From a phage, in the sequence record NC_105433.1: a stretch of DNA of 51,374 nucleotides, one strand, 5' to 3'. The notes under the pieces were generated by a model. That model was not told the origin of the DNA. It was given only the letters and a program-made list of their open reading frames with translations, and searched no databases. Positions 6,753-26,719 of the stretch are shown piece by piece; the stretch's first letter is position 1; each line of letters opens with the position of its first letter. The position numbers and the translations under genes are program-made.

Positions 6753-6794
6753 AATAGCATAAAAAAACATTGCACGTTTAACAAAAAGTGCTAT
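6753..6794 (+). promoter_or_regulatory. Composite of forward partial box and reverse-oriented box upstream of the major capsid gene
   Basis: aatagcataaaaaaacattgcacg followed by tttaacaaaaagtgctat (reverse complement of the conserved box). Confidence 0.35.
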
Positions 6795-6799
6795 CATCT

Positions 6800-6827
6800 A
6801 GGCCGTTACATTTAACGGCCTTTTTTA
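6800..6827 (+). terminator. Intrinsic terminator / attenuator just upstream of the major capsid RBS
   Basis: aggccgtta-catt-taacggcct, 9-bp perfect stem, followed by tttttt; RBS ggagg and ATG at 6841 follow. Confidence 0.6.
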
Positions 6828-6840
6828 TGGAGGAAGCAAA

Positions 6841-7812
6841 ATGGCTAAAAAATATGATGAACTAGATGCTACGATTGTGGCGAATCATTTGCAGATTCAG
6901 GGTGTTAAGTCCGACGCTTCTGATATGGGTATTTGGACCGCTCAAGAGCTACACAAGATCCGCTCTACCGCATACGAGAAAGAGTATCCGGCAGGTTCCG
7001 CGCTTCGCGTATTCCCTGTAACAAACGAGCTTTCTGATACTGACAAGACTTTCGAATATCAGACTTTTGATAAGGTTGGCTACGCGAAAATTATCGCCGA
7101 CTACACCGATGATCTGCCGACTGTGGACGCGTTGATGACTTCTGAGTTTGGCAAAGTGTTCCGCCTGGGTAACGCTTATCTGATCTCCATTGATGAGATT
7201 AAAGCAGGTCAGCGAACTGGCAAGAGCCTGTCAACTCGCAAGGCTAACGCTGCGCAAAATGCACATGATCAGTTGATTAACTTCCTGGTGTTCAAAGGTT
7301 CCAAGCCTCACAAGATCGTTTCCGTTTTCGATCATCCTAACCTTACGAAAATTGTTTCTAAAGGCTGGATGAGCCAGGACGGCAATACCAAGTTCCCGGA
7401 AGTGGCAAGCGATGAACTGGAGGCCGCAATCGAAACGATCGAGGAAGTAACCAAAGGTCAGCACCGCGCGACCAACATCCTGATCCCGCCGTCCATGCGT
7501 AAAGTCCTAACGGTTCGAATGGAAAATACCACTGAAAGTTATCTGGAATACTTCCAGAAGCAAAACGGCGGTATCACTATCGACTCTATCGCAGAGCTTG
7601 AGGATATTGACGGCAAAGGTACGAAAGGTTGCTTGGTTTACGAAAAAGATCCAATGAACATGAGCATTGAGATTCCAGAAGCGTTTAACATGCTTCCGGC
7701 GCAGCCAAAAGACCTGCATTTCAAAGTTCCTTGCACTTCCAAGTGTACTGGCCTTACGATTTATCGTCCGTTTACGATGGTGCTTATTACTGGCTTGAAA
7801 AAGTCAGCTTAA
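6841..7812 (+). CDS. Major capsid protein (putative)
   Basis: 323 aa; strong RBS; flanked by terminators; position after scaffold and decoration genes. Confidence 0.7.
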   Translation: MAKKYDELDATIVANHLQIQGVKSDASDMGIWTAQELHKIRSTAYEKEYPAGSALRVFPVTNELSDTDKTFEYQTFDKVGYAKIIADYTDDLPTVDALMTSEFGKVFRLGNAYLISIDEIKAGQRTGKSLSTRKANAAQNAHDQLINFLVFKGSKPHKIVSVFDHPNLTKIVSKGWMSQDGNTKFPEVASDELEAAIETIEEVTKGQHRATNILIPPSMRKVLTVRMENTTESYLEYFQKQNGGITIDSIAELEDIDGKGTKGCLVYEKDPMNMSIEIPEAFNMLPAQPKDLHFKVPCTSKCTGLTIYRPFTMVLITGLKKSA

Positions 7813-7823
7813 TCAGATAACAT

Positions 7824-7853
7824 GGGGAGCCTTAAGGGTTCCCCTTTTTTTTA
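7824..7853 (+). terminator. Intrinsic terminator after the major capsid gene
   Basis: ggggagcc-ttaa-gggttcccc hairpin followed by 8 T. Confidence 0.65.
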
Positions 7854-7870
7854 TTTATGGAGTACACAAA

Positions 7871-8137
7871 ATGAGCAAAACTTTAAAACTTAAAGTAACT
7901 GGCATTTGCATGATTATTATGGACGGTAAGCGTTATCATCCTGGTGATGAAATTGAAATTGAATCTGAACGCATTAATGATTCCGCAATTGAATACCTGA
8001 TCGCTCGCGGTGATGTGGAAGTTAAAGACAATTCCGAAATTAACGAGCAAATCAAGGCGAAAGCGGAGAAGAAGCGCAAAAAAGATCCTACCGAGGGCAA
8101 GAGCCGCAAAGAGCTAGAGGACGGCGGCGAATATTAA
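7871..8137 (+). CDS. Hypothetical protein (head region), Lys-rich C-terminus
   Basis: 88 aa ORF between capsid and connector genes. Confidence 0.45.
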
Positions 8138-8183
8138 TAATTGGGGCGCTTATGCGCCCTTTGTCACATCTGGAGAAAACAAA

Positions 8184-8603
8184 ATGGTAGATGAATTTTA
8201 CACAGACGCTGAAATCATGCAGCAAATCGTAAAGTTAGCGCCGCCAATGCAACAAGTTGATCCCGATTTAATTGTGGCATGGATTGAGCTTGCTAAAGAG
8301 TTTGTTTGCAAAAAACGGTTTAAAAACTCATACCCTAAAGCGGTTGCGCTTTACACTCTTCACCTTATGACCTTAGACGGGGCAATGAAACAGGAAGGTG
8401 AAAGCGTAGAAAGCTACTCCCGCCGCGTTGCCTCGTTCACTCTGACTGGTGAGTTTAGTCAGACGTTTGATCGAATTTCTTCCGATACAAGCGGAAAGCA
8501 GATCCGACAAACGCCGTGGGGCAAAATGTACGAAGTGTTAAACCGTAAGCACGGTGGCGGCTTTGGCCTTGTGACTGGATTGCGCCGGAGATGCTGCCGA
8601 TGA
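8184..8603 (+). CDS. Head-tail connector protein (gp6-like, putative)
   Basis: 139 aa; position and size; RBS ggagaaaacaaaATG. Confidence 0.45.
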
Positions 8604-8971
8604 ACTACAATGAGATTGCAAGAATGGCTACGGCTGGGATTAACTTTTTCAGCGATGCTAACGGTATGTTTAAGTGCATCACGCAGCAGGGAGGGGTTGA
8701 GATTATCGGCGGAGAGGAAGTTACCAAGCCGGAGATTTCAGTGATGATAAAGGGGCTTGTTAGATCTCCGAGGACTAGAGAGGTTGACGGTGAAGCAATC
8801 CGAGTAACCGACAAGTTGGGGATATTCACCAATGAAACTGAGATCAAAAATGGTTATCAGATTGAAATTGATGGCGAACGTTATGTTGTCGTTGAAGCAA
8901 GGCCAGTCAGGCAGACTAACATCACGGCGGCTTATCGTCCGATATTAAGGAGGATTGCTGTGCATGGCTGA
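8600..8971 (+). CDS. Head-tail adaptor / head closure protein (putative)
   Basis: ATGA overlap with the previous gene; about 123 aa; conserved position. Confidence 0.4.
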
Positions 8972-9407
8972 TAACTATAAGATCAGGGAATTTCACGGTG
9001 ATATAAGCAGGTGGATTGATTCAGTAAGCAGCGGCCTTGTTGATTGCGTTGAAATGTTCGCGACAAACGTCCACGAGGATCTTGTAAATCGCTCGCCAGT
9101 TGATACGGGCCGATATAAAGCCAACTGGCAGATAACAGCAAACAAGCCGCCGCTATATGCGCTCAACCAATACGATCGCGATGGTAGTAAAACCATTGCA
9201 GAAGGTAAGCGAGCAATATATGCAATTATGCGTGGCGGTGGCGCTGTGCGGTCAATCTATTTTTCAAACATGCTCATTTACGCAAACGCGCTTGAATACG
9301 GGCATTCAAAACAAGCGCCGTCCGGCGTACTTGGAATCGTGGCGGTAAAGCTGCGATCTTATATGGCTAAGGCAATAAAGGATTCGAGGGCAAAAAATGC
9401 ACTATGA
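8964..9407 (+). CDS. Head-tail joining protein (HK97 gp10-like, putative)
   Basis: RBS aaggagg about 11 nt upstream of the ATG at 8964; about 147 aa. Confidence 0.4.
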   Translation: MADNYKIREFHGDISRWIDSVSSGLVDCVEMFATNVHEDLVNRSPVDTGRYKANWQITANKPPLYALNQYDRDGSKTIAEGKRAIYAIMRGGGAVRSIYFSNMLIYANALEYGHSKQAPSGVLGIVAVKLRSYMAKAIKDSRAKNAL

Positions 9408-9798
9408 TTTAATGTTGGCGGCAAGAAAGGCGCTGGCGGCTGAATATGAATCACGATTTAAGATAGCCTATGAAAACGTTGATTTTGTGCCGCCTGGAGA
9501 TGGTTCTATGTGGTTAAAATTTAACTACATGGAAGCGGACACGGATCGCATATCTCTTGATAGAAAATGTGTTTCTTACATCGGTTTGGTTCAGGTTGGA
9601 ATTGTTATTCCTCCTGGTGGTGGCACTGATAAAGCGCGTTTGCTGGCTAAAGAGATTGCGAGATTTTTCTATGATGGTAGAATGTTTGAAACTGGCTATA
9701 TTAGCGAGGGAGCAAACGTCCACGCATTACTAAAAAGTGAAACAGGTTGGTTCTTGCCGATCCGTTTCAGTGTTAGGCTTGACACAAAGGAGGAATAA
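9397..9798 (+). CDS. Tail completion / tail terminator protein (putative)
   Basis: 133 aa, overlaps the upstream gene, directly precedes the major tail gene. Confidence 0.4.
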   Translation: MHYDLMLAARKALAAEYESRFKIAYENVDFVPPGDGSMWLKFNYMEADTDRISLDRKCVSYIGLVQVGIVIPPGGGTDKARLLAKEIARFFYDGRMFETGYISEGANVHALLKSETGWFLPIRFSVRLDTKEE

Positions 9799-9800
9799 TC

Positions 9801-10463
9801 ATGCACTTGCCTAATGGTTCTCAAATTTTCATCGGCGTTAATATGGGTGAGCCAATTAGCGCGACTCAAATCAGCAATGCTGATAATCCTGTTTTTACAA
9901 CCGAAAACACTCAAAGCATCAAAAAAGGCGCTTATGTTCTTATTGAAACATCTTCTTGGGGAAAACTTGTTAGTCGAGTGCTTCGAGTTAAGGAAGTATC
10001 AGATAATGTAAGTGTTACTCTTGATGGTGTTAGCACTAAAGATACAAACGTATTTCCAGAAGGACAGAACACAGCAACTTTCCGAGAAGTGAAATCTTGG
10101 GTAGAGGTTCCTTGCGTACAGGATCTTGCGCAGGACGGCGGCGAGCAACAGTATTACACTTATCAGTGTTTGGCTGATGACCAGGAACAGCAGTTGCCGA
10201 CCTACAAGAGCGCCGTTTCTCTTACCTATACTTTCGCGCATGAATATGATAATCCGATTTATCCGATCTTGCGCGAGGCTGAGGAATCCGGCGACGTAAC
10301 CGCTTTGCGTATGTACGTGCCGAAAGCTAAAGAGATGCGTTGCTGGGCTGGCGTATTGTCTTTTAATGACATTCCGCAAACCACTATGAACGAAATGGAA
10401 ACTGTTTCCCTTTCCGTATCTCTGAAAGGTAGATTCACGTTCTTACCTTCTGACGTTAAGTAA
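9801..10463 (+). CDS. Major tail protein (putative)
   Basis: 220 aa; strong RBS aaaggagg; followed by a terminator and then the chaperone and tape measure genes. Confidence 0.6.
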   Translation: MHLPNGSQIFIGVNMGEPISATQISNADNPVFTTENTQSIKKGAYVLIETSSWGKLVSRVLRVKEVSDNVSVTLDGVSTKDTNVFPEGQNTATFREVKSWVEVPCVQDLAQDGGEQQYYTYQCLADDQEQQLPTYKSAVSLTYTFAHEYDNPIYPILREAEESGDVTALRMYVPKAKEMRCWAGVLSFNDIPQTTMNEMETVSLSVSLKGRFTFLPSDVK

Positions 10464-10468
10464 AACAA

Positions 10469-10490
10469 GGGGCGTTGCGCCCCTTTTTTC
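10469..10490 (+). terminator. Intrinsic terminator after the major tail gene
   Basis: ggggcg-ttg-cgcccc followed by tttttt. Confidence 0.65.
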
Positions 10491-10529
10491 ATTCCTGTAA
10501 AATCAATCTATCAAATAAATTAATTCCAC

Positions 10530-10549
10530 TTTTAACAAAAAGTGCTATA
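10530..10549 (+). promoter_or_regulatory. Reverse-oriented conserved box abutting the RBS of the tail chaperone gene
   Basis: ttttaacaaaaagtgctata followed directly by aaggag and the ATG at 10563. Confidence 0.35.
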
Positions 10550-10562
10550 AGGAGATCTTGAG

Positions 10563-10880
10563 ATGGCAAAGATGAAACTAACGTTAGGCCCACTGCCTGA
10601 TTTTAAACTGCCTGTTTCTTTCGTGCTTCCAAATGGTGATGAGCAAGTTATTGTTTTCACTGTGCGCCACAAGAAGGCAAGCGAGATTCACGAACGATAC
10701 ACGGCAGAAAAGCCGATGAGCGACGTAGAAATGATCACCTTCCTTGCTTCCGGTTGGGATCTGGAAGATGAATTTAACGAGGAAAACGTTGCTAAATTGC
10801 TGGATTATTACCCTTCTGCGTCATTATCGCTGACTGGTCATTATATGAAAGCACTTGCGGGGCAGCGGGTAAAAAACTAA
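10563..10880 (+). CDS. Tail assembly chaperone (lambda gpG-like)
   Basis: 105 aa, directly upstream of the tape measure gene; ends just after a slippery heptamer. Confidence 0.7.
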   Translation: MAKMKLTLGPLPDFKLPVSFVLPNGDEQVIVFTVRHKKASEIHERYTAEKPMSDVEMITFLASGWDLEDEFNEENVAKLLDYYPSASLSLTGHYMKALAGQRVKN

Positions 10881-11197
10881 AGCGGGCGGTTTACCTGTTT
10901 TACCTCAAGCCGCCAACTGACGCACAATTAGAGGCCGTCGGCCTATCCCGTTCAGACTACGAAGGGGAGGAGCCGCCGGAGGTAATTTTTGATGAATCAA
11001 TGTTTCAATCTTGGGATCTGTTTTGCGCCATGCAGACGCAATGGAGATCGACTAGCGGCAGCGTGTATGGGTTCGACTATAACGTTTTGCCCATGCTTTT
11101 TGATATTTACAAGATTGATGATCGTGAGATGGCGCTAAATGATTTGCGCATCATGGAACAAAAGGCGCTAGAAATGATTCATTCAAACAAAACATAA
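10563..11197 (+). CDS. Tail assembly chaperone frameshift fusion (gpGT-like), -1 shift at 10871-10877
   Basis: The -1 frame continues 10871 to 11197 (covering ORF 11000..11197) and ends 40 nt before the tape measure start. Confidence 0.6.
10871..10877 (+). other. Slippery heptamer A_AAA_AAC for programmed -1 ribosomal frameshift
   Basis: aaaaaac in frame as gtA AAA AAC TAA; the -1 frame is open from here to 11197 with no stop. Confidence 0.65.
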
Positions 11198-11218
11198 GCG
11201 CCGCGAGGCGCTTTTTTA
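11197..11218 (+). terminator. Hairpin plus T-run between the chaperone and tape measure genes
   Basis: agcgcc-gcga-ggcgct followed by tttttt. Confidence 0.45.
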
Positions 11219-11236
11219 ATATCTGGAGGTTTTAAA

Positions 11237-13918
11237 ATGGCTGAAAAATACGCTGGCCTAACGCTAGGCGTTGACGTGTCGCAGGTCAACAATGCTGTTA
11301 AATCATTGCAGCAATTCAAGAAGGCAAACGACGACGCAAAAAAAAGCGTTAATGAATTTGTTGATTCTGAGGTTGTTGCCCGACAGCAAGCAAAACAGCT
11401 TGCCGAAGAACTGGCGCGCCAGAAAGCAGAATTTAAGAAAATCCAGGAGTCAATTGATCCCACTGCATCAAAGATGGATAAGCTGCGAAAGGCAGCGACA
11501 CAGCTTGATGCGCTATGGAAAAAGGGCGTTGTTCCTGATCAGACTTTTTTTGAGCTTGGGGCAATTCTTGAGACGCAGCAAAACAAGCTGATCGCAACCA
11601 AAAAAGCGATGACAGAGGAAGGTCGCGCGGCGCTTGAGGAATCAAAGAACAAGGCGCGTGCAGCGGAAGAGGCTAAAAAATTCGTCCAGGCTTTGCGTGA
11701 GCAGGAAGAAGCAGCAGGAAAAAGCAAGTCTGAATTGCTGGAAATGAAAGCGGCACAGCTTGGAGTTAGCCAGGAGGCAGCACCTTACATCGCAAGGCTG
11801 AAAGAGCAGGAAAAGCAGATCCAGAAACTTGGGATTTCTACAGGCCAATACAAACAAGCAATGGCGCAATTGCCAATGCAGATCACAGACGTGGTGACTT
11901 CACTTGCTTCTGGTATGCCCGTTTGGTTGGTCGCAGTCCAGCAGGGTGGACAGATCAAGGATTCTTTTGGTGGCGCATCCAATGCTTTAAAAGCGTTGCT
12001 ATCTTTCCTGAATCCGGTAAACGTGGCGTTTGGTTTGCTTTCCGGCACGCTGGCAATTGCTGCATATAATGCCCACAAAGCACAGACAGAGCTTGAGGCA
12101 ATTAAAAAAACCGTTCAGGAAACAACTGGCTTGAGTGGTGAGTTTGCCGAAAAGATTGCTATAGGAATCCAGGAGCTTTCCGACAAGACAGGCGAAAGCG
12201 CCGAAGATCTGGCAAAGGCTTACATCACCACGAAAGACGGCGCGAGCGAGGCGATTAAAAAACTGGTTGACGTTGGAATGACTTATGATGACGCAAAAAA
12301 GAAAGTCAACGAGTACAAGGGCGCGTCTAGCTTTGTCAGCTTGAATAACGAAATTGCAAACCACAAAAACAAAGTCCTTGAGTTGGGCGAGTCGTGGTAT
12401 GAAGTTTTGAAAGCTAAGCGTGATTACGCTTCCCCGTCCGGCGGCCTGTTAGGTAAAGAGCTTGGCTATGTTAATCCTATGCTTAAGTTTGCACTTAACA
12501 CTTATGAAGACATTGGAAAGGTCGTAAAAGATGCGAATAAGGACATGGCGGAGCGAGCGGAGCGAATCGACAAAGAAAACTTGTCATTAAACAGAGTGAG
12601 AGCGGCGCAAGAGGCTTTAAACAAAGCCATTGAGGATCAGAAGGGCGTGGCGCGTTCGGCTGATGAAGAACTGAAAAAGCGCGCGGCTGAAAACGTGGAG
12701 TTCAGACGCAAAGAGCTTGAGGAGATCAAGAAGCAGGAGCAGAAAAAGAAAGAGGCTAAATGGGGAATAGTTCGCGGACCTACTGAGCAGCTTGATAAAG
12801 AGTTGTACGTTTTAAAAGCGCAACTGGAAACTCTTAAAGAGCATCGCACTGTTAACGATGTTATTTCTCGCCAGCGTAAATCTTTATGGAGCATCGAAAA
12901 GCAGATCGAGATCCTAGAGAATGCGCAGAGCAAGCGTAAATTGACCGGAGCGGAACAGGCGCTACTAAACGAGCAAAAAGCCGTTCTTGAAATGGCAAGA
13001 CAAAAAGCGGAGCTAGGGGATCAGATTGTTTTGCAGGAGCGCAAAAACAAACTGGAGCAAGATAGTCTTAAGTTTATCCGTGAAACGGAGGCGGCTATTG
13101 ATGCGATTGGCCTTAAGCAACTTGGCTACACTGAAAAGCAGATCGAGCGTGAGCTAGAGTTACGCAAGCTGCGCACCGACTACGAGGCGCAAGGCGGAAG
13201 CGTTAGCGACGAAGTTTTTCAGCAAATGGAGACGAAACTTAAGCTGTATTACCAGGCACAAGACGAGGCGCAAGGCAACTGGTTAGCCGGAGCAAAGAAC
13301 GCATGGGAGCTATTCGCGGAAGATGCAAACAATGCCTATGGCAATGTTCAGCAGATTGCAAGCGAGGCGTTAAACGGCCTTACAAACCAATTAGCGAATT
13401 TTATCGCTACTGGCAAGGCAAACTTTAAAGACTTCTCGACGGCTATCATCAAAATGATTATTCAGATGATCACGAAAATGGTTGTCTTTAATGCGTTATC
13501 TGGCCTGATGGGTGGTCAAACCTGGACGATGGGGAGCTTGCTTAAGAATATTGGCGGATTTGCTGGCGGTGGATACACTGGCGATGGCGGGAAGTATGAG
13601 CCAGCCGGAATTGTTCATAAGGGTGAATTTGTCATGACGAAGGAGGCAACGCAGCGTATCGGAGTAGGCAACTTGTACCGCATGATGCGAGGCTATGCTA
13701 ACGGCGGCGTTGTTGGTGGTTCCGGCTATACTGGCGGTGGCACTGTCACTGGTGGAGCACCTCAATTTAACATCGGCGGGATTGATGTTAGCATCACTAA
13801 CGGCAACGATCCGAAGGGCATCGAAACTGGTGTTAAGATGATCTTTACTGATATGATTAAGCGTTCCTGTATGCAGGGCGGCGAGGTTTACGAATTTGTT
13901 ATGAGCAAGCGAGGTTGA
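11237..13918 (+). CDS. Tail tape measure protein
   Basis: 893 aa; long Ala/Lys/Glu/Gln-rich coiled-coil region; Gly-rich C-terminal segment; RBS ggagg; canonical position. Confidence 0.9.
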   Translation: MAEKYAGLTLGVDVSQVNNAVKSLQQFKKANDDAKKSVNEFVDSEVVARQQAKQLAEELARQKAEFKKIQESIDPTASKMDKLRKAATQLDALWKKGVVPDQTFFELGAILETQQNKLIATKKAMTEEGRAALEESKNKARAAEEAKKFVQALREQEEAAGKSKSELLEMKAAQLGVSQEAAPYIARLKEQEKQIQKLGISTGQYKQAMAQLPMQITDVVTSLASGMPVWLVAVQQGGQIKDSFGGASNALKALLSFLNPVNVAFGLLSGTLAIAAYNAHKAQTELEAIKKTVQETTGLSGEFAEKIAIGIQELSDKTGESAEDLAKAYITTKDGASEAIKKLVDVGMTYDDAKKKVNEYKGASSFVSLNNEIANHKNKVLELGESWYEVLKAKRDYASPSGGLLGKELGYVNPMLKFALNTYEDIGKVVKDANKDMAERAERIDKENLSLNRVRAAQEALNKAIEDQKGVARSADEELKKRAAENVEFRRKELEEIKKQEQKKKEAKWGIVRGPTEQLDKELYVLKAQLETLKEHRTVNDVISRQRKSLWSIEKQIEILENAQSKRKLTGAEQALLNEQKAVLEMARQKAELGDQIVLQERKNKLEQDSLKFIRETEAAIDAIGLKQLGYTEKQIERELELRKLRTDYEAQGGSVSDEVFQQMETKLKLYYQAQDEAQGNWLAGAKNAWELFAEDANNAYGNVQQIASEALNGLTNQLANFIATGKANFKDFSTAIIKMIIQMITKMVVFNALSGLMGGQTWTMGSLLKNIGGFAGGGYTGDGGKYEPAGIVHKGEFVMTKEATQRIGVGNLYRMMRGYANGGVVGGSGYTGGGTVTGGAPQFNIGGIDVSITNGNDPKGIETGVKMIFTDMIKRSCMQGGEVYEFVMSKRG

Positions 13919-13920
13919 TA

Positions 13921-14271: not shown

Positions 14272-14275
14272 TTTA

Positions 14276-14313
14276 AAGCCGCCCTTGTGCGGCTTTTTTC
14301 TTGATGTTACAAT
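14276..14313 (+). promoter_or_regulatory. Composite terminator with embedded sigma70-like promoter (TTGTGC, 17 nt, TACAAT)
   Basis: Hairpin aagccgc-ccttgt-gcggctt plus T-run; -35-like ttgtgc lies in the 3' stem and tacaat at about 14308-14313; RBS aaggagg precedes the ATG at 14334. Confidence 0.4.
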
Positions 14314-14333
14314 GAGCAAAAAGGAGGTAGAAA

Positions 14334-16403: not shown

Positions 16404-16408
16404 AAAAA

Positions 16409-16445
16409 TACCCGCCTTGCGCGGGTTTTTTTGTGCCTTTATAAT
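16409..16445 (+). promoter_or_regulatory. Composite terminator with embedded sigma70-like promoter (TTGCGC, 17 nt, TATAAT)
   Basis: cccgc-cttgc-gcggg hairpin followed by ttttttt; tataat at about 16440-16445 with ttgcgc 17 nt upstream inside the hairpin. Confidence 0.4.
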
Positions 16446-16481
16446 GTTCAAACCAAGAAACAGCACAAAAGGTTAAAAGTC

Positions 16482-19400: not shown

Positions 19401-20060
19401 CAGGCCGTTCAGCAGCTTGACGCTAAGTTCACGAAAGAGATAAACGACCTTGACGGAGTTATCAAAACAGAAGTCGAGGCTAACATCTCAGAAGTGAAAC
19501 AGGCGATCGCCAATGAGACAGAGGCAAGGGTTCAGGCTGACCAGGCTTTAACAGCTAAATTCGGAGATGTTGAATCAGCACTAGCCGAAAAACTTGATTC
19601 GTGGGCTAACGTTGATTCTGTTGGCGCTAAGTACGCTATGAAATTGGGCCTTACTTACAAGGGGCAGAAGTACAGCGCAGGAATGATCATGCAGTTGTCG
19701 CAATCTTCTCAAGGCCTGATCTCGCAAATCTTGTTCGATGCTAACAGGTTCGCGATCATGACTAGCTCTACTGGCGGTACGTTTACATTGCCGTTTGTAG
19801 TAGAAAATAACCAGGTGTTTATCAACAGTTTGTTGGTGAAAAACGGGTCCATTACTAACGCAATGATTGGTAACGTGATTCAGTCAAATAACTTTGTTCA
19901 GAATCAGCAAGGGTGGAGGCTTGATAAAAATGGTAACTTTGAGAACTACGGAACGAGAGCGGGGGAAGGAGCTACAAAATTCACTAACGAAGGCTTAAAG
20001 GTGAAAGATGCAAATGGACGATTGAGGGTTGAGATAGGGAGAATAACCGGAAGTTGGTAA
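16482..20060 (+). CDS. Central tail fibre / host specificity protein (lambda gpJ-like)
   Basis: ORF frame 16431..20060 begins at a TTG; first ATG is at 16482; about 1192 aa; last large gene of the tail module; C-terminal tandem repeats of about 40 aa. Confidence 0.85.
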   Translation: MAKYMISGSKGGSKKPYVPKEMEDNLISINKIKVLLAVSDGECDPNFTLRDLYLDDVPVIASDGTVNYEGVTAEYRPGTQTQDYIQGFTDTSSEVTVSRDITADNPYVISVTNKNLSAIRIKILMPVGMKQEDNGDLVGVRVQYAVDMAVDGGSYNEVMRDVIDGKTRSGYDRSRRIDLPKFDERVLIRVKRLTPDSTSSKVTDKIKLQSYAEVVDAKFRYPLTGLVFVEFDSELFPTQIPNISIKKKWKIINVPSNYDPISREYHGSWDGTFKKAWSNNPAWVLYDLVTNQRYGLDQRELGIQIDKWSLYEAGVYCDQKVPDGKGGTEPRYLCDVVIQNQVEAYQLIRDICSIFRGMSFWNGESLSIVIDKPRDPSYVFTNENVINGDFQYTTASEKSMYTQCNVTFDDEQNMYQQDVEGVFDTEAALRFGYNPTSITAIGCTRRSEANRRGRWVLKTNLRSTTVNFATGLEGMIPSIGDVIAIADNFQSSNLTLNLSGRVMEVSGLQVFVPFKVDARPGDFIIINKPDGKPVKRTISKVSADGKTIELNIGFGFDVKPDTVFAIDRTDLALQQYVVTTISKGDDENEFTYSITAVEYDPNKYDEIDYGVNIDDRPTSIVQPDVMAAPENVQISSYSRVVQGVSVETMVVSWEKVPYASLYEMQWRKGDGNWLNTPQTANKEIEVEGIYSGNYQVRVRSVSASGNTSPWSKIATATLTGKVGEPGAPINLTASDNEVFGIRVKWGMPEGSGDTAYIELHQSPDGTVENSSLLTLIPYPQYEYWHSTLPAGQVVWYRIRSVDRIGNVSGWTDFVRGMASDDVESVLGDILDKIFDTEAGQEIKENAIDSANKIKDQAQSIIQNALANDADVKWTRVQNGKRKAEYGHALELIANETEARVTQIEELKASIDEDIVSSIKTVQEAIANESETRATQVQQLDSKFTKEIDGVKRDTAASIGEVRQTITNESEARAQAVQQLDAKFTKEINDLDGVIKTEVEANISEVKQAIANETEARVQADQALTAKFGDVESALAEKLDSWANVDSVGAKYAMKLGLTYKGQKYSAGMIMQLSQSSQGLISQILFDANRFAIMTSSTGGTFTLPFVVENNQVFINSLLVKNGSITNAMIGNVIQSNNFVQNQQGWRLDKNGNFENYGTRAGEGATKFTNEGLKVKDANGRLRVEIGRITGSW

Positions 20061-20090
20061 AAAAAGGGGGCGTGGCCCCCTTTAATTTTA
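20061..20090. terminator. Bidirectional terminator between convergent J (+) and minus-strand genes
   Basis: gggggc-gtg-gccccc hairpin flanked by an A-run upstream and T-rich sequence downstream. Confidence 0.6.
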
Positions 20091-20702
20091 ATCATAGTGC
20101 GATGAATTTATAACCAAAACAGATGATGCCGTGTAAATACCAACAGGACCAGAAGTTTGCGCAACCTGCCTAGATAAAGAATATACCCCGTTGCCATAAG
20201 CGGCAGCTTGAGACTCAAATATCATGAATCCACCTAAAGACGGATTGGGCACAGAGTTTAAAGCTGTTAGTGATGGCATGATGGCGCAAGGGTATCCCAA
20301 GTTAACGTCAAAAGCGATCCCGCTTACAGATACAAGTTTTGCATCCAAAGGCTTCATCTTTCCATGATAAACCATCTCACCATTAGCATTATAAAAAGCT
20401 ATTCCGTGACTACCAGGAGGAGTAACCATGTTGCTAAAAGCATAAACAAATACCTCGCCTTGATTGTCTGACTTTTCTATCTTTATTGCGTGCTTCCCAC
20501 CATTATTAAACTGAGTAAATGCTATGTATGATTTTGATGTTAATCTTACAAAAAAGAAGCACGGTCTATTTATTGGTATAGAAGTATTAAAAACGGTTCC
20601 TGTTCTTGCTGATATTTTCCCTTTATCTATAAGGTTAACAGGAGTGAAATCTGGACTTAACCACAATGAACCGTCTGGTTTTTTTATGCTCATTCCGTAC
20701 AT
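20088..20702 (-). CDS. Hypothetical protein, third gene of the lipoprotein operon
   Basis: ORF 20088..20714 begins at a TTG; first ATG at 20702 with RBS ggggg; about 204 aa; start overlaps the stop of the upstream gene. Confidence 0.5.
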   Translation of the reverse strand: MYGMSIKKPDGSLWLSPDFTPVNLIDKGKISARTGTVFNTSIPINRPCFFFVRLTSKSYIAFTQFNNGGKHAIKIEKSDNQGEVFVYAFSNMVTPPGSHGIAFYNANGEMVYHGKMKPLDAKLVSVSGIAFDVNLGYPCAIMPSLTALNSVPNPSLGGFMIFESQAAAYGNGVYSLSRQVAQTSGPVGIYTASSVLVINSSHYD

Positions 20703-20704
20703 TA

Positions 20705-20983
20705 TTACCCCCAAAAAGTATATATATATCTTGAGTCAGATCCAGAAAGGCCACTCCATGTAACGGTATCACCACTTACACCCAACTTTGGAGCGCCTGG
20801 ATCGCCTCCTCGCCACGAATTCATTCCAACATATATTGCTTTCAAAGACTTACCTGGAGGCCTGTTTGAGTAGGTCTTACTGCCGGATGATTGAGTAAAT
20901 TTATCCAAGAAAAAAACTGGAGTTAAAAGGCCAGTAACATTTCTACCTTGCTCATCATATATTGCATACCCATATTCAGCCAT
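20705..20983 (-). CDS. Hypothetical protein
   Basis: 92 aa; RBS gaggtg; translationally coupled to its neighbours. Confidence 0.5.
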   Translation of the reverse strand: MAEYGYAIYDEQGRNVTGLLTPVFFLDKFTQSSGSKTYSNRPPGKSLKAIYVGMNSWRGGDPGAPKLGVSGDTVTWSGLSGSDSRYIYTFWG

Positions 20984-21251
20984 TTTTGCACCTCAAATCA
21001 ATGAATTTTCTTTCATCTTGCCAACGGTTGATAAATTTAACTTCTTTATTGTCAACGCTCAACCTGTATTGCTTTTGGCTGAATCTGTTTTCGCGTACCG
21101 CATTAATTTTAACTTCATGGAATCCGTTAACAGGGAATGTTTTAACGTTAAATTTTGCCGTGCAATCGATCTCCTTGAAGTTGCCAGTAGGCGAAGAAGA
21201 ACATCCGGTCAGGGCTGCTACGGTGGCGATAACTGCGATTAATTTTTTCAT
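20976..21251 (-). CDS. Lipoprotein, candidate Cor/Llp-like receptor-blocking superinfection exclusion protein
   Basis: ORF 20976..21257 begins at a TTG; ATG at 21251 with RBS aaggggg; signal peptide with lipobox LTGC; about 91 aa; antisense to and adjacent to the tail genes. Confidence 0.5.
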   Translation of the reverse strand: MKKLIAVIATVAALTGCSSSPTGNFKEIDCTAKFNVKTFPVNGFHEVKINAVRENRFSQKQYRLSVDNKEVKFINRWQDERKFIDLRCKNG

Positions 21252-21283
21252 CTTCAATACCCCCTTAGTTGTTGTTGGCTGTA

Positions 21284-21327
21284 ACTATACACGATCCGGC
21301 AAGCCGAGTTTAGCAAAAAGTGCTACT
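21284..21327 (-). promoter_or_regulatory. Box-type promoter for the lipoprotein operon
   Basis: On the minus strand: gtagcactttttgctaaa, about 21 nt, then tatagt, then RBS and ATG of the lipoprotein gene. Confidence 0.45.
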
Positions 21328-21419
21328 TGTTATTTTTTGTTTTCCGGTGTTATCGGATTTAAGACGGCGTAAATTTAGCGCAAATTTTAGCCAACATAAG
21401 AACAATAAATAATCAATAA

Positions 21420-21615
21420 AATAGGTATATACATATAAAATCAATAGTTTATTTATTTATGTATGTGTATTTGTTTTTTCTTGTTATCTGTGTTTCTTGT
21501 GGTTTTGGTTGTTTGTGGTGATTTTTCTTTCTGAGTATCTGTATGTGCCATCATTCATGTGTATGTATATAATCCGGCGTATCTGAGAGAACAAGGGAAC
21601 AAGAAAAATAACACA
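21420..21615 (+). repeat. Noncoding block A, homologous to block B at 42480..42690
   Basis: Ordered sub-blocks: atttatttat AT-rich run, G/T-rich run (tgtgtttcttgtggttttggttgtttgtggtg), then gtatgtatataatccggcg...aacaagaaaaataaca. Confidence 0.6.
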
Positions 21616-21695
21616 TATTAATCATTAACTTACGCGTAAAATTTGTTTTATTGCCATCTGAGAACGTTTAGAAAACAGAAAAAACAAAACAACTA

Positions 21696-21723
21696 TTGAC
21701 TAAATCAACCAAATGGCTACAAT
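21696..21723 (+). promoter_or_regulatory. Near-consensus sigma70 promoter (TTGACT, 16 nt, TACAAT) for the recombination operon
   Basis: ttgact at about 21696-21701 and tacaat at about 21718-21723; RBS gaggag; ATG at 21754. Confidence 0.65.
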
Positions 21724-21753
21724 GCACACACAAAGCAACGAGGAGCATTAAAG

Positions 21754-22809
21754 ATGAGTGATTTTAACGCCTATACTAGCGAAGAAATGAGCAATGAACT
21801 TTATCATGATCCTAACGCGTGGACGGCTGAATACGTCAGCGGTTCCAGCCTGGCGGAGATTTACAGCACTTGCCCTGCGTACTGGAAGTACAAGCCTCGC
21901 CAGGAAACCAAAGCACTTGTTTTCGGTACGCAGTCGCATACCAATTTTGAAAGCAAGGAGTTATTCGAAAAAACATATCGCCGCGCACCGTCGCAGGATG
22001 ATTTTAAAGATCTGATCACAAGTCAAACGGCGTTGGCCTCAAAGCTGAAATCTTTTGGCCTGAAAGGTACAACTGGTAAGCAATACCCCGAATTGCTGGA
22101 AATGCTGTACAAGTGCGGTGAGGATCTCAATGTATGGTGGCTTATCGAAATGATGGCAGAATGCCAGGCCGCAGCGGACGGCGTGCAGTTAATCGACGCG
22201 AAAGATTATGATGCCTGTGTAGCGATGCGGCGCGTACTTGAGGCAATACCTGAGCATAATGCTTGCATGAATAGCCCAACCGCGCAGCGTGAAATGTCAA
22301 TATTCGGGATCATCAATGGCGTAAAAGTTAAAGTGCGCCTTGATCACGTTGACGTAAACAAGGATGTAAAGGCCACAATCATTAACGGTTACGACGAAAA
22401 AGGCCGACCGATTTATGAAGAAGTCATCTATCCAGAAGCTGTGATTATAACTGACTATAAAACAACGGTTAGCGCAAATCCGGTTGACTTCCAGCGTCTG
22501 GCTTACAATCACGGCTATTATCTCAAAATGGCTTTGCAACATGATTTATTCAAAAAGGCGTATCCAGACGAGGAAAGACCAGTAATTGTGAGATTGCTTG
22601 CTCAAGAGAAGAAAGAGCCTTACTTGCCGCTCGCATTCCGAATGAACATTGAGCAATTGAAGATCGGGCGTATCCAGTACATGAGCGTGATCAACAAGTT
22701 CAACGTTTGCCAACAGTTAGATGAATGGCCTTCGTATGCAAACGGACAACCAGAAATTGATCTTGATACTCCTGATTGGGTTCGCGCTCAATTCAGGCAG
22801 TATCTATAA
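21754..22809 (+). CDS. Recombination exonuclease (PD-(D/E)XK, RecB/Cas4-like, putative)
   Basis: 351 aa; IITDYKTT segment resembling nuclease motif III; first gene of an operon with Erf-like and SSB genes. Confidence 0.6.
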   Translation: MSDFNAYTSEEMSNELYHDPNAWTAEYVSGSSLAEIYSTCPAYWKYKPRQETKALVFGTQSHTNFESKELFEKTYRRAPSQDDFKDLITSQTALASKLKSFGLKGTTGKQYPELLEMLYKCGEDLNVWWLIEMMAECQAAADGVQLIDAKDYDACVAMRRVLEAIPEHNACMNSPTAQREMSIFGIINGVKVKVRLDHVDVNKDVKATIINGYDEKGRPIYEEVIYPEAVIITDYKTTVSANPVDFQRLAYNHGYYLKMALQHDLFKKAYPDEERPVIVRLLAQEKKEPYLPLAFRMNIEQLKIGRIQYMSVINKFNVCQQLDEWPSYANGQPEIDLDTPDWVRAQFRQYL

Positions 22810-22814
22810 CAAAC

Positions 22815-22862
22815 TAAACAAATAGCTAAACTTTTATAATGGTTGGTGATATAATTCGCCAA
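22815..22862 (+). promoter_or_regulatory. Degenerate box plus hairpin-enclosed TATAAT
   Basis: aaatagctaaactttt followed by tataat and a ggttgg...ccaacc stem whose loop contains a second tataat. Confidence 0.3.
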
Positions 22863-22884
22863 CCAGATAACAGGAGAATGAGAA

Positions 22885-23142
22885 ATGACAGACAAAGACA
22901 ATGCCACATTATTGCATTTAGAACGATTCATTGATCGAGTAACCATTGCAATGAAAGAATTTATTAAGCCGATGAACATTAAAGAGTCGGAAGAAATGAA
23001 GACTTACATCAAGGACGTGGTTGCATCCATTGACAACGTTATCCTTGTTGCAACGATGAGCAAGGGAAACAAAGAGCGCGAGAGGTTGGTTACTGAATCA
23101 ACAGAAGAATTTATTAAAATGCTTGAAAGCGAGAAGGAATAA
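22885..23142 (+). CDS. Hypothetical protein
   Basis: 85 aa; RBS caggag; between exonuclease and Erf-like genes. Confidence 0.5.
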   Translation: MTDKDNATLLHLERFIDRVTIAMKEFIKPMNIKESEEMKTYIKDVVASIDNVILVATMSKGNKERERLVTESTEEFIKMLESEKE

Positions 23143-23799
<657 letters not shown>

Positions 23800-23804
23800 T
23801 AAAC

Positions 23805-23826
23805 GGGGCGCTTGCGCCCCTTTTGT
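23805..23826 (+). terminator. Hairpin plus short T-run between the Erf-like and SSB genes
   Basis: ggggcg-cttg-cgcccc followed by ttttgtc. Confidence 0.5.
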
Positions 23827-23842
23827 CATAGGAGAAAACAAA

Positions 23843-24295
23843 ATGCACGTTATTACAGGTGAGATCCGAAAAGAGCCAAAAGTAAAGCAAATGCCTAACG
23901 GCAGCACGCTATATGTTGTTGAGCTTTCCGAGCGATACAAAGACCGAGAGGGAAATTGGCAGTATACAAACTATGTGTTTTTCTTTAACGCGAAAACAGA
24001 CGGCCTGAATGGTTGGTATGCTGAGGCTTTCCAAGTAGGAAAGGTTATTTCTGTTTCCTGCGATACCTTGCGAGTTGAAACGCGAGAATACAACGGAAAG
24101 ATCTACAGCACCGTGCAGCCTGGCGGATTTGCAAACCTGATATTTAGCCAGCGCGGAGAAAGCCAGCAACAATATCAGCAGCGAACGCAAGGAGGCTGGG
24201 GGCAACCACAACAGCAACAGCAACAAAATACTCAACAGCAGCCACAGCAAAGCAATCAGCCGCCAATTGACTTTGACGATGATATACCATTCTAA
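23843..24295 (+). CDS. ssb: Single-stranded DNA-binding protein
   Basis: ORF frame 23792..24295; ATG at 23843 has RBS aggaga; Gln/Pro-rich linker and acidic C-terminal tip DFDDDIPF. Confidence 0.85.
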   Translation: MHVITGEIRKEPKVKQMPNGSTLYVVELSERYKDREGNWQYTNYVFFFNAKTDGLNGWYAEAFQVGKVISVSCDTLRVETREYNGKIYSTVQPGGFANLIFSQRGESQQQYQQRTQGGWGQPQQQQQQNTQQQPQQSNQPPIDFDDDIPF

Positions 24296-24300
24296 TGACA

Positions 24301-24327
24301 AAAAGCCCCGCATATGCGGGGCATTTT
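24301..24327. terminator. Bidirectional terminator between convergent ssb (+) and tail fibre (-)
   Basis: gccccgcatatgcggggc palindrome flanked by aaaa and ttttt. Confidence 0.65.
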
Positions 24328-26630
24328 TATTTGAGATCAACAAGTTTTGCAACCATCGACTTTAATTCGTCAACCTCACTTCTTAGCGATCGCAATTCCT
24401 CCTCCTGCTCTTTGCAAACTTGCAATATGTATGCAGTTACCGCTGAGTAGTCAACTTGTAGAAATCTTTCCTTTCCAATAAGTTCGCTACCGTCTTTTGT
24501 TGGGCCATGCAATTGCTGATAATCCTCAAAAGAACTAATAGCCTCCGGCACAACCTCCATGATCTCTTGAGCTATAACTCCAGCATAAGGCATACCATCT
24601 TTCTTTAACGTGTATGTATACCCACTAACTTTCTCAAGACCTAGCCTTGCATTTTCAATTGGTTTAATGTCAGTTTTCAAATCTCTGTCTGACCCCTGGT
24701 TAAATGCTGTTGCGTTCACAGGTCCGTTAACTTGCAGTTGTCTAGAGTTATTTGAGTTTAACTGAGCATAGAAAACCCACCCAGGTCCGTTATCAAAACC
24801 CCACTCAATAACCGACGCCCTATCAGACCCGTTACCCCATAATTTGAAGGTTGCAGGGTGCGACGAGTTGCCGTCGTTAAGCATTTTGAAATACTTGCCA
24901 CTCGGACGGTCGATCTCTAAACTTGCGGCCTGGACGTATGCTTTGCCTGCAAAGTTCTTTGTACCCATCACAACGCCGTCGGTGATCAACTCAACCTTAG
25001 AAGACGTGAGGTTGTTCAGAAACAGCGCGCTCGTTCCGGTGTCCTTCCCTAAAAACCAAAGACGTGTGCCAGCGGAGTTGTACCCTGTTACGTGCAGTGG
25101 TTGGTTGTTTGTTGACGCTGTTCCGTCGATACGAAAACCGCCATTAGCGGTTGTAACTTTAATGCTTGGTACGGTCATAGCGAATGTGCCACTGGCCGCA
25201 AGGCCGTTATACGCGATCAGCTTGTTGTCATACGCAAGCTCACCATTGTCGCGCATTTGTAGCACTTTCTGCGACGTCCCGTTGCGAATGCCAACATCCG
25301 TGCCGCCTACAAACATTTCGACGATTCGATTACCGCTTTTAGCTCTCACGTAAGCGTTATATTCCGGCGACGACCCCGCGTTATACAGTTCGTACCACTG
25401 CGACCAGGTGTCAGTTGCCCCGTTGCTAATCCAGCGCATCCATTTACGACCGTAACGGTATGAGGTGTACGTTTGTATGCAGCTTTTCGGATTGTTAGCT
25501 CCAGTCCTCTGCACCAACAAACAACCTGCCGTCACGGAAGGGTAGTTTCGCTCAGCAGTGGCGTTTGCAGTCAGTGACTGATAGTAAAAACCAGACTTAT
25601 CACCTTTCAGATCATTAAGGTTCTCAGTTGCCAGTGATTTCTGTCTTTCGTGCATGGCTTGAAGGTTGGCGCGCGCTCCCTGGTCGTTCGATGCTCCTGT
25701 CCCGCCGTCCCCGATCGCCACGTCACCGTTAGCACCCAGCTTCGCCAGTTCAATGGCGCCCACATTTCCAGATGAGCCGTTAATCGCGGCATTGTTTCCA
25801 GCGAAAACCTTCACGCGAGATGTCTGGTAGTCAACGTTAAACGCAAAAAATGTGTCACCAGCCCCGCCGCACACCCCTGGACCATACCTGAACGGCGTCA
25901 TCTCGCCAGAAGGGAACTGCGTAATATCATCGACGCGCCAGAATCCTCCTTTGACAGTATCGCGCAACCGCTTGAGCATATCCCTTACGCCAGTCGGCGC
26001 AGGTAATGTTACACCCGCATACGGCACTCTATTCTGAGCCTCTGAGCTTCCAGCAGCAGCCTCTGCTCGATCAGCCTCTGTTTTAGCCTTGTTTGCACTA
26101 TTTGCGGCATTAGTTTCCGATGTTTTAGCCGCATTCTTACTTGCATTGGCTGCATTTTCAGATGCTTTGGCATTAGTTTCCGATGTTTTAGCGTTTGTTT
26201 CAGAAGTCTTTGCAGCACTAGCGCTTTGTTTTGCTGATTCAGCGCCTTGTTTCACCTGATTTACAAGATCTTTCAACCCATCAAGATCGAAATCTCTAAA
26301 AAATTCAAGCGCGTCAGCGATCTCCGTTTCCTTGCTTTGATAGTAACGCAGTGTTTCCGCTACGTCCTGCGCCAGCCCGTCAACCGTTAACGAGTCATGA
26401 AGCAAGATCAGGTAATTTGTCTTCTGGACTACCGCGCCGCCAGTAGTAATTGCGCGAATGCTTGTATCGCTAATCACTTCTGTAATAACAGCAGCTTGCA
26501 AAGGTTGGGTAAGAAAGAAAATTGTTGCACCTGGGCGAATCAAGGTTAATTGTTCACGCCATTTTGTGTCGTAACCAGTCACATAACCTTGCGCGTCCAT
26601 AGACGCTTGGCCTTGTCTGTAAATCGCCAT
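24327..26630 (-). CDS. Tail fibre protein with C-terminal intramolecular chaperone (peptidase S74-like) domain
   Basis: ORF 24327..26654; ATG at 26630 has RBS taggagg; low-complexity AKTSETNAK repeats; C-terminal [30 protein letters not shown]...GVIAQEI resembles autoproteolytic chaperone domains. Confidence 0.75.
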
Positions 26631-26645
26631 TTGTAAAATCCTCCT

Positions 26646-26666
26646 AAATAGCACTTTTTGCTAATG
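26646..26666 (+). promoter_or_regulatory. Forward-strand box copy antisense to the tail fibre gene, abutting its RBS
   Basis: aaatagcactttttgctaatg on the plus strand; a second partial copy aatagcatttt about 20 nt downstream. Confidence 0.3.
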
Positions 26667-26693
26667 ACAATGCAGATAATAGCATTTTCAAGT

Positions 26694-26719
26694 GTAAAAA
26701 AAAACCCCGCATAAGCGGG
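26694..26719 (-). terminator. Intrinsic terminator after the primase gene (minus strand)
   Basis: Minus strand reads ccccgc-ttat-gcgggg followed by 9 T. Confidence 0.65.

Follow-up and report, generated by a model that had tools for sequence, protein, structure and literature searches.

The window analyzed here (the whole stretch of 51,374 nucleotides in sequence record NC_105433.1) is the complete 51.4-kb genome of a T1-like siphophage that is 98% identical, over the 5 kb tested, to Escherichia phage tonnikala (Drexlerviridae, Tempevirinae, Warwickvirus). It carries dispersed copies of a short sequence box, three of which lie upstream of the late genes for the major capsid protein (MCP), a tape-measure chaperone, and the tail fiber; genes were identified by their annotated counterparts in near-identical and related phages. 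The box is of interest for gene timing in T1, which belongs to the classical set of seven T phages. Three properties of the box are joined here: the repeat has the form of a dyad operator, it stands at a fixed distance from early -10 hexamers, and it lies inside or just after the predicted host-type promoters of at least five late genes.

The box is the 21-nucleotide (nt) repeat of the Drexlerviridae, aaATAGCACnnnTTGnTAAAA, known from phage TLS as the DR family. With up to three mismatches, its 16-mer TAACAAAAAGTGCTAT occurs 19 times in the window (0.77 expected). The core is an imperfect dyad, TAGCA-N5-TG(C/T)TA, and a search with TAGCA-N5-TGYTA returned 23 matches counting both strands, which correspond to 19 sites (0.32 expected); the arms are perfect at 2152, 21311, 26649, and 48014. 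This length agrees with the ~15 to 17 bp expected of an operator for a dimer of a Cro/CI-type helix-turn-helix (HTH) protein. Read in the direction of the early genes, the box is aaATAGCACTTTTTG(T/C)TAAAAC, with GAATT and TAATT as alternative centers. The same box was found in phages BabyEgg, vojen, T1, and Stevie, in Klebsiella phage Sushi, and in a phage recorded as Vibrio phage Vc1, with late copies at orthologous positions; in the record of Citrobacter phage Stevie, box copies are annotated as repeat_region. We also considered a sigma54 promoter (TGGCAC-N5-TTGC) as the source of the TAGCAC...TTGC pattern and rejected it: the box has AG rather than GG, its G-to-C distance is 10 rather than 12, and a sigma70-type -10 is kept 22 nt downstream.

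In the 2024 description of TLS, 18 intergenic 21-nt direct repeats (DR1 to DR18) were reported to lie along the direction of transcription, ~76 nt upstream of start codons, and T1, Rtp, and Rogue1 were said to carry similar repeats (PMC11447400). Their function was listed as an open question, with a stoperator, an enhancer, or an UP element proposed (PMC11447400). That paper makes no mention of a dyad, of the fixed 22-nt distance to a -10, or of DR7 lying reversed inside a sigma70 promoter. The copies in this window belong to the same sequence family, the MCP copy corresponding to DR7 and that of the J-like tail gene to DR8.

The first-pass annotation of this DNA had placed box copies upstream of the MCP, chaperone, and fiber genes. 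All three are present, intergenic, and inverted relative to the downstream gene, unlike the TLS description, and they are conserved in relatives; a lack of conservation was part of what that annotation had named as refuting. Of 53 related IMG/VR loci, 49 have the MCP copy at the same position and in the same direction, as do BabyEgg, vojen, T1, and Stevie; 30 have the chaperone copy, always inverted, which BabyEgg, vojen, and T1 share; and among 69 distinct sequences upstream of the fiber gene, 24, the T1 group included, carry an inverted copy. Relative to the 20-mer ATAGCACTTTTTGTTAAAAC, they carry two mismatches (6775-6794), one (10529-10548), and four (26648-26667), confined to the 3' flank or to the alternative T/C position of the TG(C/T)TA arm. 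Their ends precede the start codon by 46 nt (MCP), 14 nt (chaperone), and 17 nt (fiber). The copies had been said to abut the ribosome-binding site, which holds for the chaperone (TGCTAT, then AAGGAG) and the fiber (TGCTAT-tt-AGGAGG) but not for the MCP copy, which is 34 nt from GGAGG (6829-6833). Inversion likewise describes these three copies but is not a rule of the late region, since the copies at 2151-2166 and 16460-16475 are forward.

Approximately 17 copies in the window have a canonical arrangement, lying exactly 22 nt (sometimes 21) upstream of a -10 hexamer without a -35 element. Across 76 canonical promoters from six genomes, the consensus comprises the box, a fixed 22-nt spacer of unconserved sequence, and then G-14, A-11, and T-7, with no -35. 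The hexamers are CATAAT, TATAAT, TATATT, TACATT, and TATAGT; A-11 and T-7 are nearly invariant, G is often present at -14, and nothing resembling a -35 was found 16 to 18 nt from the -10 of these promoters. The TTGTTA of the box was rejected as a -35 element because, in 80 of the copies scanned, 22 nt separate it from the -10, too long for sigma70. Because of this 22-nt distance, the dyad is centered near -42. Activators such as CRP, FNR, and lambda CI at PRM contact RNA polymerase from about -42 at promoters that lack a -35, and by analogy we infer that the canonical dyad occupies the position of such an activator. Scores for -10 elements were built on approximate base frequencies and serve as relative measures only; on this scale, canonical -10 hexamers score 4.6 to 8.6, and the 90th percentile of random sequence is 3.5. 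About half of the canonical spacers hold a GC hairpin, which probably terminates transcription of the unit before it. A CA-rich leader, CATCGAAACGAA, is kept after the canonical -10 (for example, at 43578-43600 and, on the minus strand, at 42140-42160), followed by a Shine-Dalgarno sequence and ATG. On the minus strand, a degenerate box, ACAGCACGAATAGCTA, is seen at 27723-27738, upstream of the primase gene and still within the last part of the regulator gene; TAATAT follows it after 22 nt. It has counterparts in T1 (35980), Stevie (26438), and Sushi (27370).

The following features lie at the capsid gene:
6754-6769, plus strand: upstream block made of the half-site ATAGCA and the A-tract AAAAAAACA
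6770-6775, plus strand: -35-like hexamer TTGCAC of the predicted capsid promoter (PMCP), 16 nt upstream of the -10
6779-6794, minus strand: MCP box copy, ATAGCACTTTTTGTTA on the minus strand and TAACAAAAAGTGCTAT on the plus strand
6789-6797, plus strand: extended -10 of PMCP, TGcTATCAT (hexamer 6792-6797), predicted start near 6804
6800-6827, plus strand: 9-bp hairpin (6800-6808/6813-6821) and T-run, beginning 2 nt after the -10
6841-7812, plus strand: MCP gene, annotated in tonnikala

The box thus makes up the spacer of PMCP together with the TG and the initial TAT of its -10. Among relatives it lies 60 to 80 nt upstream of the capsid gene, always antisense; of the four loci that depart from this, three hold a copy that is half degenerate or has a 1-nt deletion, and one locus is truncated. 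In the sense-strand consensus of 27 nonredundant relatives, aTAaCA.AAAAa....TTGcacgTTTAaCAAAAA.TGCTat.at, the A-tract, TTG, TTTAACAAAAA, TGCT, and the -10 are conserved, and the intergenic DNA farther upstream is fully diverged. The TTG of the -35 is at least 90% conserved (as TTGCAC, TTGACG, or TTGAAC), and the -10 hexamers (TATCAT, TATTAT, TATATT, and TATGAT) have T at -7 in 27 of 27. In three relatives a 1-nt insertion breaks the box (GTGCTTATCAT) and TATCAT is retained; in Sushi, TTGACG-16-TATTCT is kept around a degenerate box. These comparisons indicate that a sense sigma70 promoter is under selection at this site. The distal arm of the box, TAACA, which lies in the spacer, is also at least 90% conserved, though sigma70 needs no particular spacer sequence, which argues that something other than sigma70 reads the box. 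The A-tract resembles a proximal UP-element subsite, and the predicted start at 6804 is upstream of the Shine-Dalgarno sequence at 6829. A generic promoter scan left this promoter uncalled, as TTGCAC matches TTGACA at three of six positions.

Two earlier proposals for this site survive in part. It had been read as a -35-less extended -10 late promoter; TGcTATCAT is indeed a conserved extended -10, but the putative promoter has a TTG-type -35 16 nt upstream of it. Positions 6753-6794 had also been described as a quasi-palindrome. What we found is a 6-nt inverted repeat, ATAGCA/TGCTAT, with 29 nt between its arms; the half-site (ATAACA in most relatives, rather than ATAGCA) and the A-tract are conserved, but no palindrome is. 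On the minus strand, the half-site places TGcTATTAG at the canonical 22 nt from the box, without T at -7 and with a score of 1.9, compared to at least 4.6 for canonical elements. In the relatives examined, the antisense -10 at this distance scored 1.2 to 2.7 and never had T at -7.

A hairpin of 8 to 10 bp follows the MCP -10 by 0 to 3 nt in essentially all relatives, with stems that vary by clade and always pair through compensatory changes. In folding predictions for 27 variants, read-through RNA gave a mean of -12.7 kcal/mol, versus -0.7 to -3.6 kcal/mol for RNA starting 6 to 9 nt past the hexamer. Transcripts from PMCP would escape termination because most of the 5' arm of the hairpin is absent from them. 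It is therefore likely that the hairpin stops upstream transcripts and that capsid mRNA arises solely from the box-containing PMCP. The same order of -10 hexamer, hairpin, T-run, and Shine-Dalgarno sequence is seen at 2175-2203, 5915-5943, and 7818-7852, and in T1 at 10545, 14235, 16107, and 28568; at the other late terminators, the -10 comes after the terminator instead. We also considered a loading site of the lambda Q type: the MCP site alone has a box between -35 and -10, and no Q-like protein is annotated in relatives. The nested design fits an older idea, quoted in the TLS paper, of the T1 late region as a chain of "transcriptons" (PMC11447400).

At the tail fiber gene, the elements are as follows:
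24327-26630, minus strand: tail fiber gene, starting at ATG 26630 rather than at GTG 26654 of the open reading frame (ORF) list
26645-26640, minus strand: Shine-Dalgarno sequence AGGAGG, 2 nt from the box
26648-26663, plus strand: fiber box copy, ATAGCACTTTTTGCTA, with perfectly palindromic arms (TAGCAAAAAGTGCTAT on the minus strand)
26676-26684, minus strand: extended -10 TGcTATTAT, predicted start near 26669

Here the box falls at approximately +7 to +22 of the predicted sense promoter. An extended -10 of the form TG-n-TA..AT (TGcTATTAT, TGcTAAAAT, TGaTAAAAT, and similar) is found in nearly all 69 distinct upstream sequences, with or without a box and Webervirus included, just after the primase terminator and, where a box is present, 7 to 12 nt upstream of it. 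Box spacers vary among AAAAG, AAACG, and ATTCG/ATTAG. The box end had been proposed as a sense late promoter in its own right, a proposal that these sequences speak against: the hexamer it forms (TATTTA or TATATA) almost never has T at -7, and the conserved sense -10 upstream is a separate element. No antisense -10 was detected at the fiber copy (scores of -1.0 to 1.6).

The chaperone locus holds two predicted promoters back to back:
10467-10489, plus strand: intrinsic terminator after the major tail protein gene, terminator-like on both strands in this phage
10475-10503, plus strand: predicted sense promoter TTGCGC-17-TAAAAT (hexamer 10498-10503), predicted start near 10510
10505-10513, minus strand: antisense extended -10 TGaTAGATT, 22 nt from the box, predicted start near 10498 and directed toward the major tail gene
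10533-10548, minus strand: chaperone box copy (TAACAAAAAGTGCTAT on the plus strand)
10549-10554, plus strand: Shine-Dalgarno sequence AAGGAG, adjoining the box
10563-10880, plus strand: tape-measure chaperone gene, annotated in tonnikala

The -35-like TTGCGC sits in the terminator loop, and the box lies at about +24 to +39 of the sense start. Among 16 nonredundant relatives, T-12, A-11, and T-7 of the antisense -10 and the TA.AAT of the sense -10 are at least 90% conserved, and the spacer between box and antisense -10 is diverged. The antisense -10 scores 3.5 to 5.7, compared to 4.6 to 8.6 for canonical elements. Across lineages it is gained and lost together with the box, and the sense -10 persists as TGTAATAT where the box is missing. 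Because lineages without the box keep the sense -10 but not the antisense -10, the box and antisense -10 behave, in sequence comparison, as one inverted promoter cassette inserted downstream of the sense promoter and ahead of the Shine-Dalgarno sequence. Starts are predicted at 10510 (plus) and 10498 (minus) and diverge, each within or at the edge of the opposite -10 hexamer; since each start overlaps or adjoins the other promoter's -10, the two promoters should be mutually exclusive.

As at the fiber gene, the end of the chaperone box had been proposed as a sense late promoter. That proposal does not stand: none of the 16 nonredundant relatives has T at -7 of the hexamer derived from the box (TATAAG, TATCAA, TATTTA, and others), the start from this hexamer would fall near 10558, past the Shine-Dalgarno sequence, and a separate conserved sense -10 lies upstream. 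The first-pass annotation had alternatively suggested antisense promoters at all three late copies. Its suggestion applies to the chaperone copy, with its conserved -10 at 22 nt, and not to the MCP or fiber copies, whose antisense scores are given above; correspondingly, the predicted chaperone geometry matches the class II type of activated promoter, with a site near -42 and no -35, a pattern that the other two lack. No conserved terminator or ORF was found for the chaperone antisense RNA in the relatives compared. Antisense ORFs downstream of the late boxes (6172-6534 and 10259-10492, minus strand) were set aside, as they overlap structural genes and have no usable ribosome-binding site.

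Further copies lie at a divergent locus and at two more late genes:
2151-2166, plus strand: portal box copy, TAGCACTAATTGCTA, at approximately -36 to -21 of TATAAT 2175-2180
16460-16475, plus strand: box copy of the J-like tail gene, ACAGCACAAAAGGTTA, at approximately +9 to +24 of TATAAT 16440-16445
27722-28198, minus strand: gene for a Cro-type HTH regulator (phrog_2856, homologue of T1 gp23)
28210-28225, plus strand: box between the divergent regulator and helicase genes
28248-28253, plus strand: predicted -10 of the helicase promoter, TATTAT
28277-28249, minus strand: predicted regulator promoter, TTTAAA-17-TATAAT

The box at 28210-28225 is canonical for the helicase gene (approximately -50 to -35) and inverted for the regulator gene, at approximately +18 to +33 and adjoining its Shine-Dalgarno sequence. 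In all 80 related loci the order is TATAATA, about 20 nt, the box in the 5' leader of the regulator gene, and then the Shine-Dalgarno sequence; an equivalent regulator promoter was predicted in TLS as P57 (PMC11447400). The regulator TATAAT and helicase TATTAT overlap with a 1-nt offset, their predicted starts are 18 bp apart (28242-28260), and TATAATA is kept in relatives. At the portal, the box overlaps the -35/spacer region, and TATAAT is followed by a hairpin (2182-2203) and the portal gene. The J-like copy has a degenerate right arm, overlaps the Shine-Dalgarno sequence of its gene, and is conserved in four other genera, with examples in BabyEgg, vojen, T1, and Stevie; this gene starts at ATG 16482, not at TTG 16431 of the ORF list. 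In T1, a forward copy directly follows TGgTAAAAT upstream of the small terminase (TerS) gene. Because late copies occur both forward (portal, J-like, and T1 TerS) and inverted, recognition as double-stranded DNA fits the sequences better than recognition as RNA.

That the copies are binding sites of one regulator for early and late genes, another of the earlier suggestions, is the best fit to all copies as judged from their sequences. We propose, at a confidence evenly balanced between acceptance and doubt, that the late boxes are operators for one factor, which turns early promoters on and either represses late promoters or competes with them. The three inverted late copies would then be three placements of one operator: part of a promoter (MCP), a start region (fiber), and an inverted cassette (chaperone). 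The architecture and its conservation are observed, and the start sites, binding, direction of regulation, and relief of repression in the model that follows are inferred. A sequence-specific, probably dimeric factor would occupy TAGCA-N5-TG(C/T)TA. At the ~17 early and middle promoters it would be centered near -42 and recruit RNA polymerase where a -35 is lacking. At the capsid gene, occupancy of the box would hinder the strong-looking PMCP, with its A-tract, -35, and extended -10 and its position nested in a terminator, and capsid transcription would depend on PMCP alone. At the fiber, portal, and J-like genes, the factor would lie over the promoter core or the initial 25 bases of the transcript. 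For the chaperone and regulator genes, the cassette of box and -10 would face away from the gene, interlocked with the gene's own -10; polymerase that binds antisense with the help of the factor would keep the sense promoter from being used, and the factor would in addition occupy the sense leader. The net effect of an active factor would be to turn early promoters on and hold these late promoters down. As a guess, relief could come from titration of the factor by replicated phage DNA.

A bolder version, which we consider doubtful, is that this single 15-bp dyad and one factor form the main cis-element of the T1-like temporal program: the same occupancy would turn on, from -42, ~17 early and middle promoters without a -35 and turn off, from within their cores, the capsid, portal, fiber, and tail-tip promoters, polymerase would be flipped antisense at the chaperone and regulator genes, the switch would come by titration or loss of the factor during replication of phage DNA, and the factor could even be the host leucine-responsive regulator, Lrp. 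If this were true, no late activator made by the phage would be needed.

The candidate binder suggested by sequence is the 158-amino-acid Cro-type regulator. It gave subthreshold Pfam matches to YdaS and P22_Cro, a match to phrog_2856, and profile matches to solved Cro proteins (E = 2e-4 to 6e-3). A structure model from a 31-sequence alignment reached a predicted local distance difference test (pLDDT) value of 85.6, and its central domain matched Xfaso-1 and N15 Cro with target-normalized TM-scores of 0.67 to 0.75, with C.BclI among the weaker fold matches; a single-sequence model (pLDDT 36) was unusable. The regulator is the sole annotated transcription regulator in relatives, and its family is restricted to T1-like phages (80 IMG/VR loci and 99 database homologues). 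That the element encodes an HTH protein with a box at its own gene, in 80 of 80 loci, is an association only. Covariation between regulator and box was uninformative, as the 80 loci and 99 homologues are all at least 46% identical, T1-like, and accompanied by the same box in every genome examined. The most conserved part of the protein is a basic N-terminal arm, DKRxxNGNNGTxRGxDKxxR (residues 14 to 33), probably disordered according to the model; the HTH is less conserved. The first immediate-early protein (42784-43281, DUF7174) was considered as an alternative binder and is an unlikely reader of an invariant site, being only 14 to 68% identical across the family.

Several points weigh against the operator proposal. 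The predicted recognition helix of the candidate (helix 3, residues 75 to 84) differs by genus, at residues where base contacts are usual (SQQVVNQW, SNQTVQGW, NLKTVWGW, and VCRLTNAY in Vc1) while the box is invariant, which is unexpected if this helix reads the box, because the box is the same in all genera. Early synthesis of a repressor of the capsid promoter would call for a mechanism of relief, and none was found. The usual footprint of polymerase ends short of the boxes at the chaperone and regulator genes (approximately +18 to +39), and direct repression there could act as a roadblock only. Most late promoters in the window lack a box, and it is therefore not the sole early/late switch. 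All promoters are predicted: the searchable literature holds no transcript 5'-end, binding, or expression data for any T1-like phage, and our search for transcriptomes or start-site maps of T1-like phages found none.

Other explanations account for some of the copies. The host could supply the factor, for example Lrp, so that early promoters are on and boxed late promoters off from time zero and the factor is later titrated by replicating DNA. A repressor made by the phage poses a problem of timing that a host factor would avoid. The box does not differ among phages of Escherichia, Klebsiella, and Citrobacter and Vc1, whereas the regulator helix and the first early protein show little conservation. 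For Lrp of E. coli, the consensus is yAGhAwATTwTdCTr (PMC5554404); TAGCACTTTTTGCTA fits it at 13 of 15 positions (12 to 13 of 15 for the dyad), a level of at least 12 that is reached by 0.09% of the 15-mers in the window. Yet the match is post hoc, with many other factors to choose from; the consensus includes neither the invariant C at position 6 of the box nor its flanks, AA...AAAAC; and Lrp usually acts through arrays of sites rather than a single site at -42. T1-like phages are also not known to depend on lrp, and we consider a host factor unlikely. Equally unlikely, in our judgment, is that the copies are chiefly antisense promoters whose RNA, or whose transcription itself, silences upstream late genes or collides with late transcription. 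Lambda paQ, an activator-dependent antisense promoter that delays late genes, offers a precedent, and the chaperone copy has the full canonical architecture with its key -10 positions kept. The MCP and fiber scores (1.2 to 2.7 and -1.0 to 1.6), on the other hand, are in the random range, T-7 never occurs at MCP, and the chaperone antisense RNA would meet a hairpin after ~30 nt whose U-tract is present in the window and not in T1, so that no RNA product is conserved; nor is there a plausible antisense ORF, as ATG 10492 has no Shine-Dalgarno sequence at a suitable distance and lies over the tail gene.

The reading of all three inverted boxes as -35-less extended -10 promoters for the gene downstream draws on the TGCTAT with which the box ends and on the conserved TGcTATCAT formed at MCP; given the -35 of the MCP promoter, the missing T-7 and misplaced start at the chaperone, the TATTTA or TATATA at the fiber, and the separate conserved sense -10 at both of these genes, we regard it as improbable. 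An action in RNA, as a leader element by the Shine-Dalgarno sequence that serves as an A-rich translational enhancer or as the target of a translational repressor, would suit the chaperone, fiber, and regulator boxes, which are predicted to be transcribed, lie 0 to 11 nt from the Shine-Dalgarno sequence, and give an A-rich sense RNA, UUUUAACAAAAAG. It is highly improbable, since the portal, J-like, and T1 TerS copies are oppositely oriented, the canonical copies (and largely the MCP copy) are upstream of the predicted start, and the conserved feature is a DNA dyad with no match to an Rfam family. Finally, the late copies could be nonfunctional relics of promoter cassettes that recombination carried from one mosaic module to another; the clean insertion or deletion of the chaperone cassette between lineages and the absence or decay of the fiber copy in many of them are compatible with this. 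Position, orientation, and both arms are nevertheless conserved across subfamilies next to fully diverged intergenic DNA, and the MCP copy is nearly universal, which leaves this explanation with very little to recommend it.

The proposed operator arrangement has partial parallels. Lambda CI at OR activates PRM from about -42 and represses PR. Like CI and the C-proteins of restriction-modification systems, the box places a dyad near -42 at promoters predicted to be activated and over the core or start at those predicted to be repressed, with an autoregulatory site at the regulator's own gene and a Cro-type fold in the candidate. Unlike those systems, it has no tandem cooperative operators but ~20 dispersed single sites per genome, with activity that is predicted only, and, unlike lambda, this phage is virulent and makes no lysis/lysogeny decision. 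Protein p4 of phage phi29 couples activation of one promoter class to repression of another, and its action at A2b/A2c and A3, where one protein redirects host RNA polymerase between close opposed promoters, resembles the arrangement predicted here; phi29, however, activates late and represses early promoters, the reverse of the polarity predicted here, and no homology was found. Bidirectional promoters are said to arise from -10 symmetry, in work attributed to Warman et al. in 2021. The overlapping regulator and helicase hexamers are of this kind, whereas the chaperone hexamers are adjacent rather than overlapping, with predicted starts ~12 bp apart. The stoperators of mycobacteriophage L5, an analogy raised by the TLS authors, are likewise many dispersed intergenic copies of one asymmetric repressor site. 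In contrast, stoperators keep one orientation, lie in transcribed regions, and block elongation, whereas most copies here are at a fixed distance upstream of a -10, which points to control of initiation.

With these placements defined, the question left open for the TLS repeats becomes testable on a few short fragments. T1-like phages are common fermentation contaminants and candidates for phage therapy, and a compact promoter set switched both ways by one factor could be of use in engineering.

The genome is laid out as follows:
17 to ~20060, plus strand: structural genes
20088-21257, minus strand: small gene cluster
21754-24450, plus strand: recombination genes
24327-28198, minus strand: tail fiber, primase, and regulator genes
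28286-34952 (plus), 35148-42124 (minus), and 42784-51354 (plus): three early/DNA-metabolism blocks

A whole-window scan with Rfam 15 gave 0 covariance-model matches at the gathering score, and a tRNA scan of the window gave no matches. Two long noncoding stretches, at 42203-42780 (~580 bp) and 21330-21750 (~420 bp), are AT/GT-rich with short repeats; the ORF-list entry at 42322-42669 is probably spurious. The first ends just before 42784 in TTGACA-16-TATAAT and the second near 21700 in TTGACT-16-TACAAT, both close to the sigma70 consensus; judging by their sequences, these are likely immediate-early promoters.

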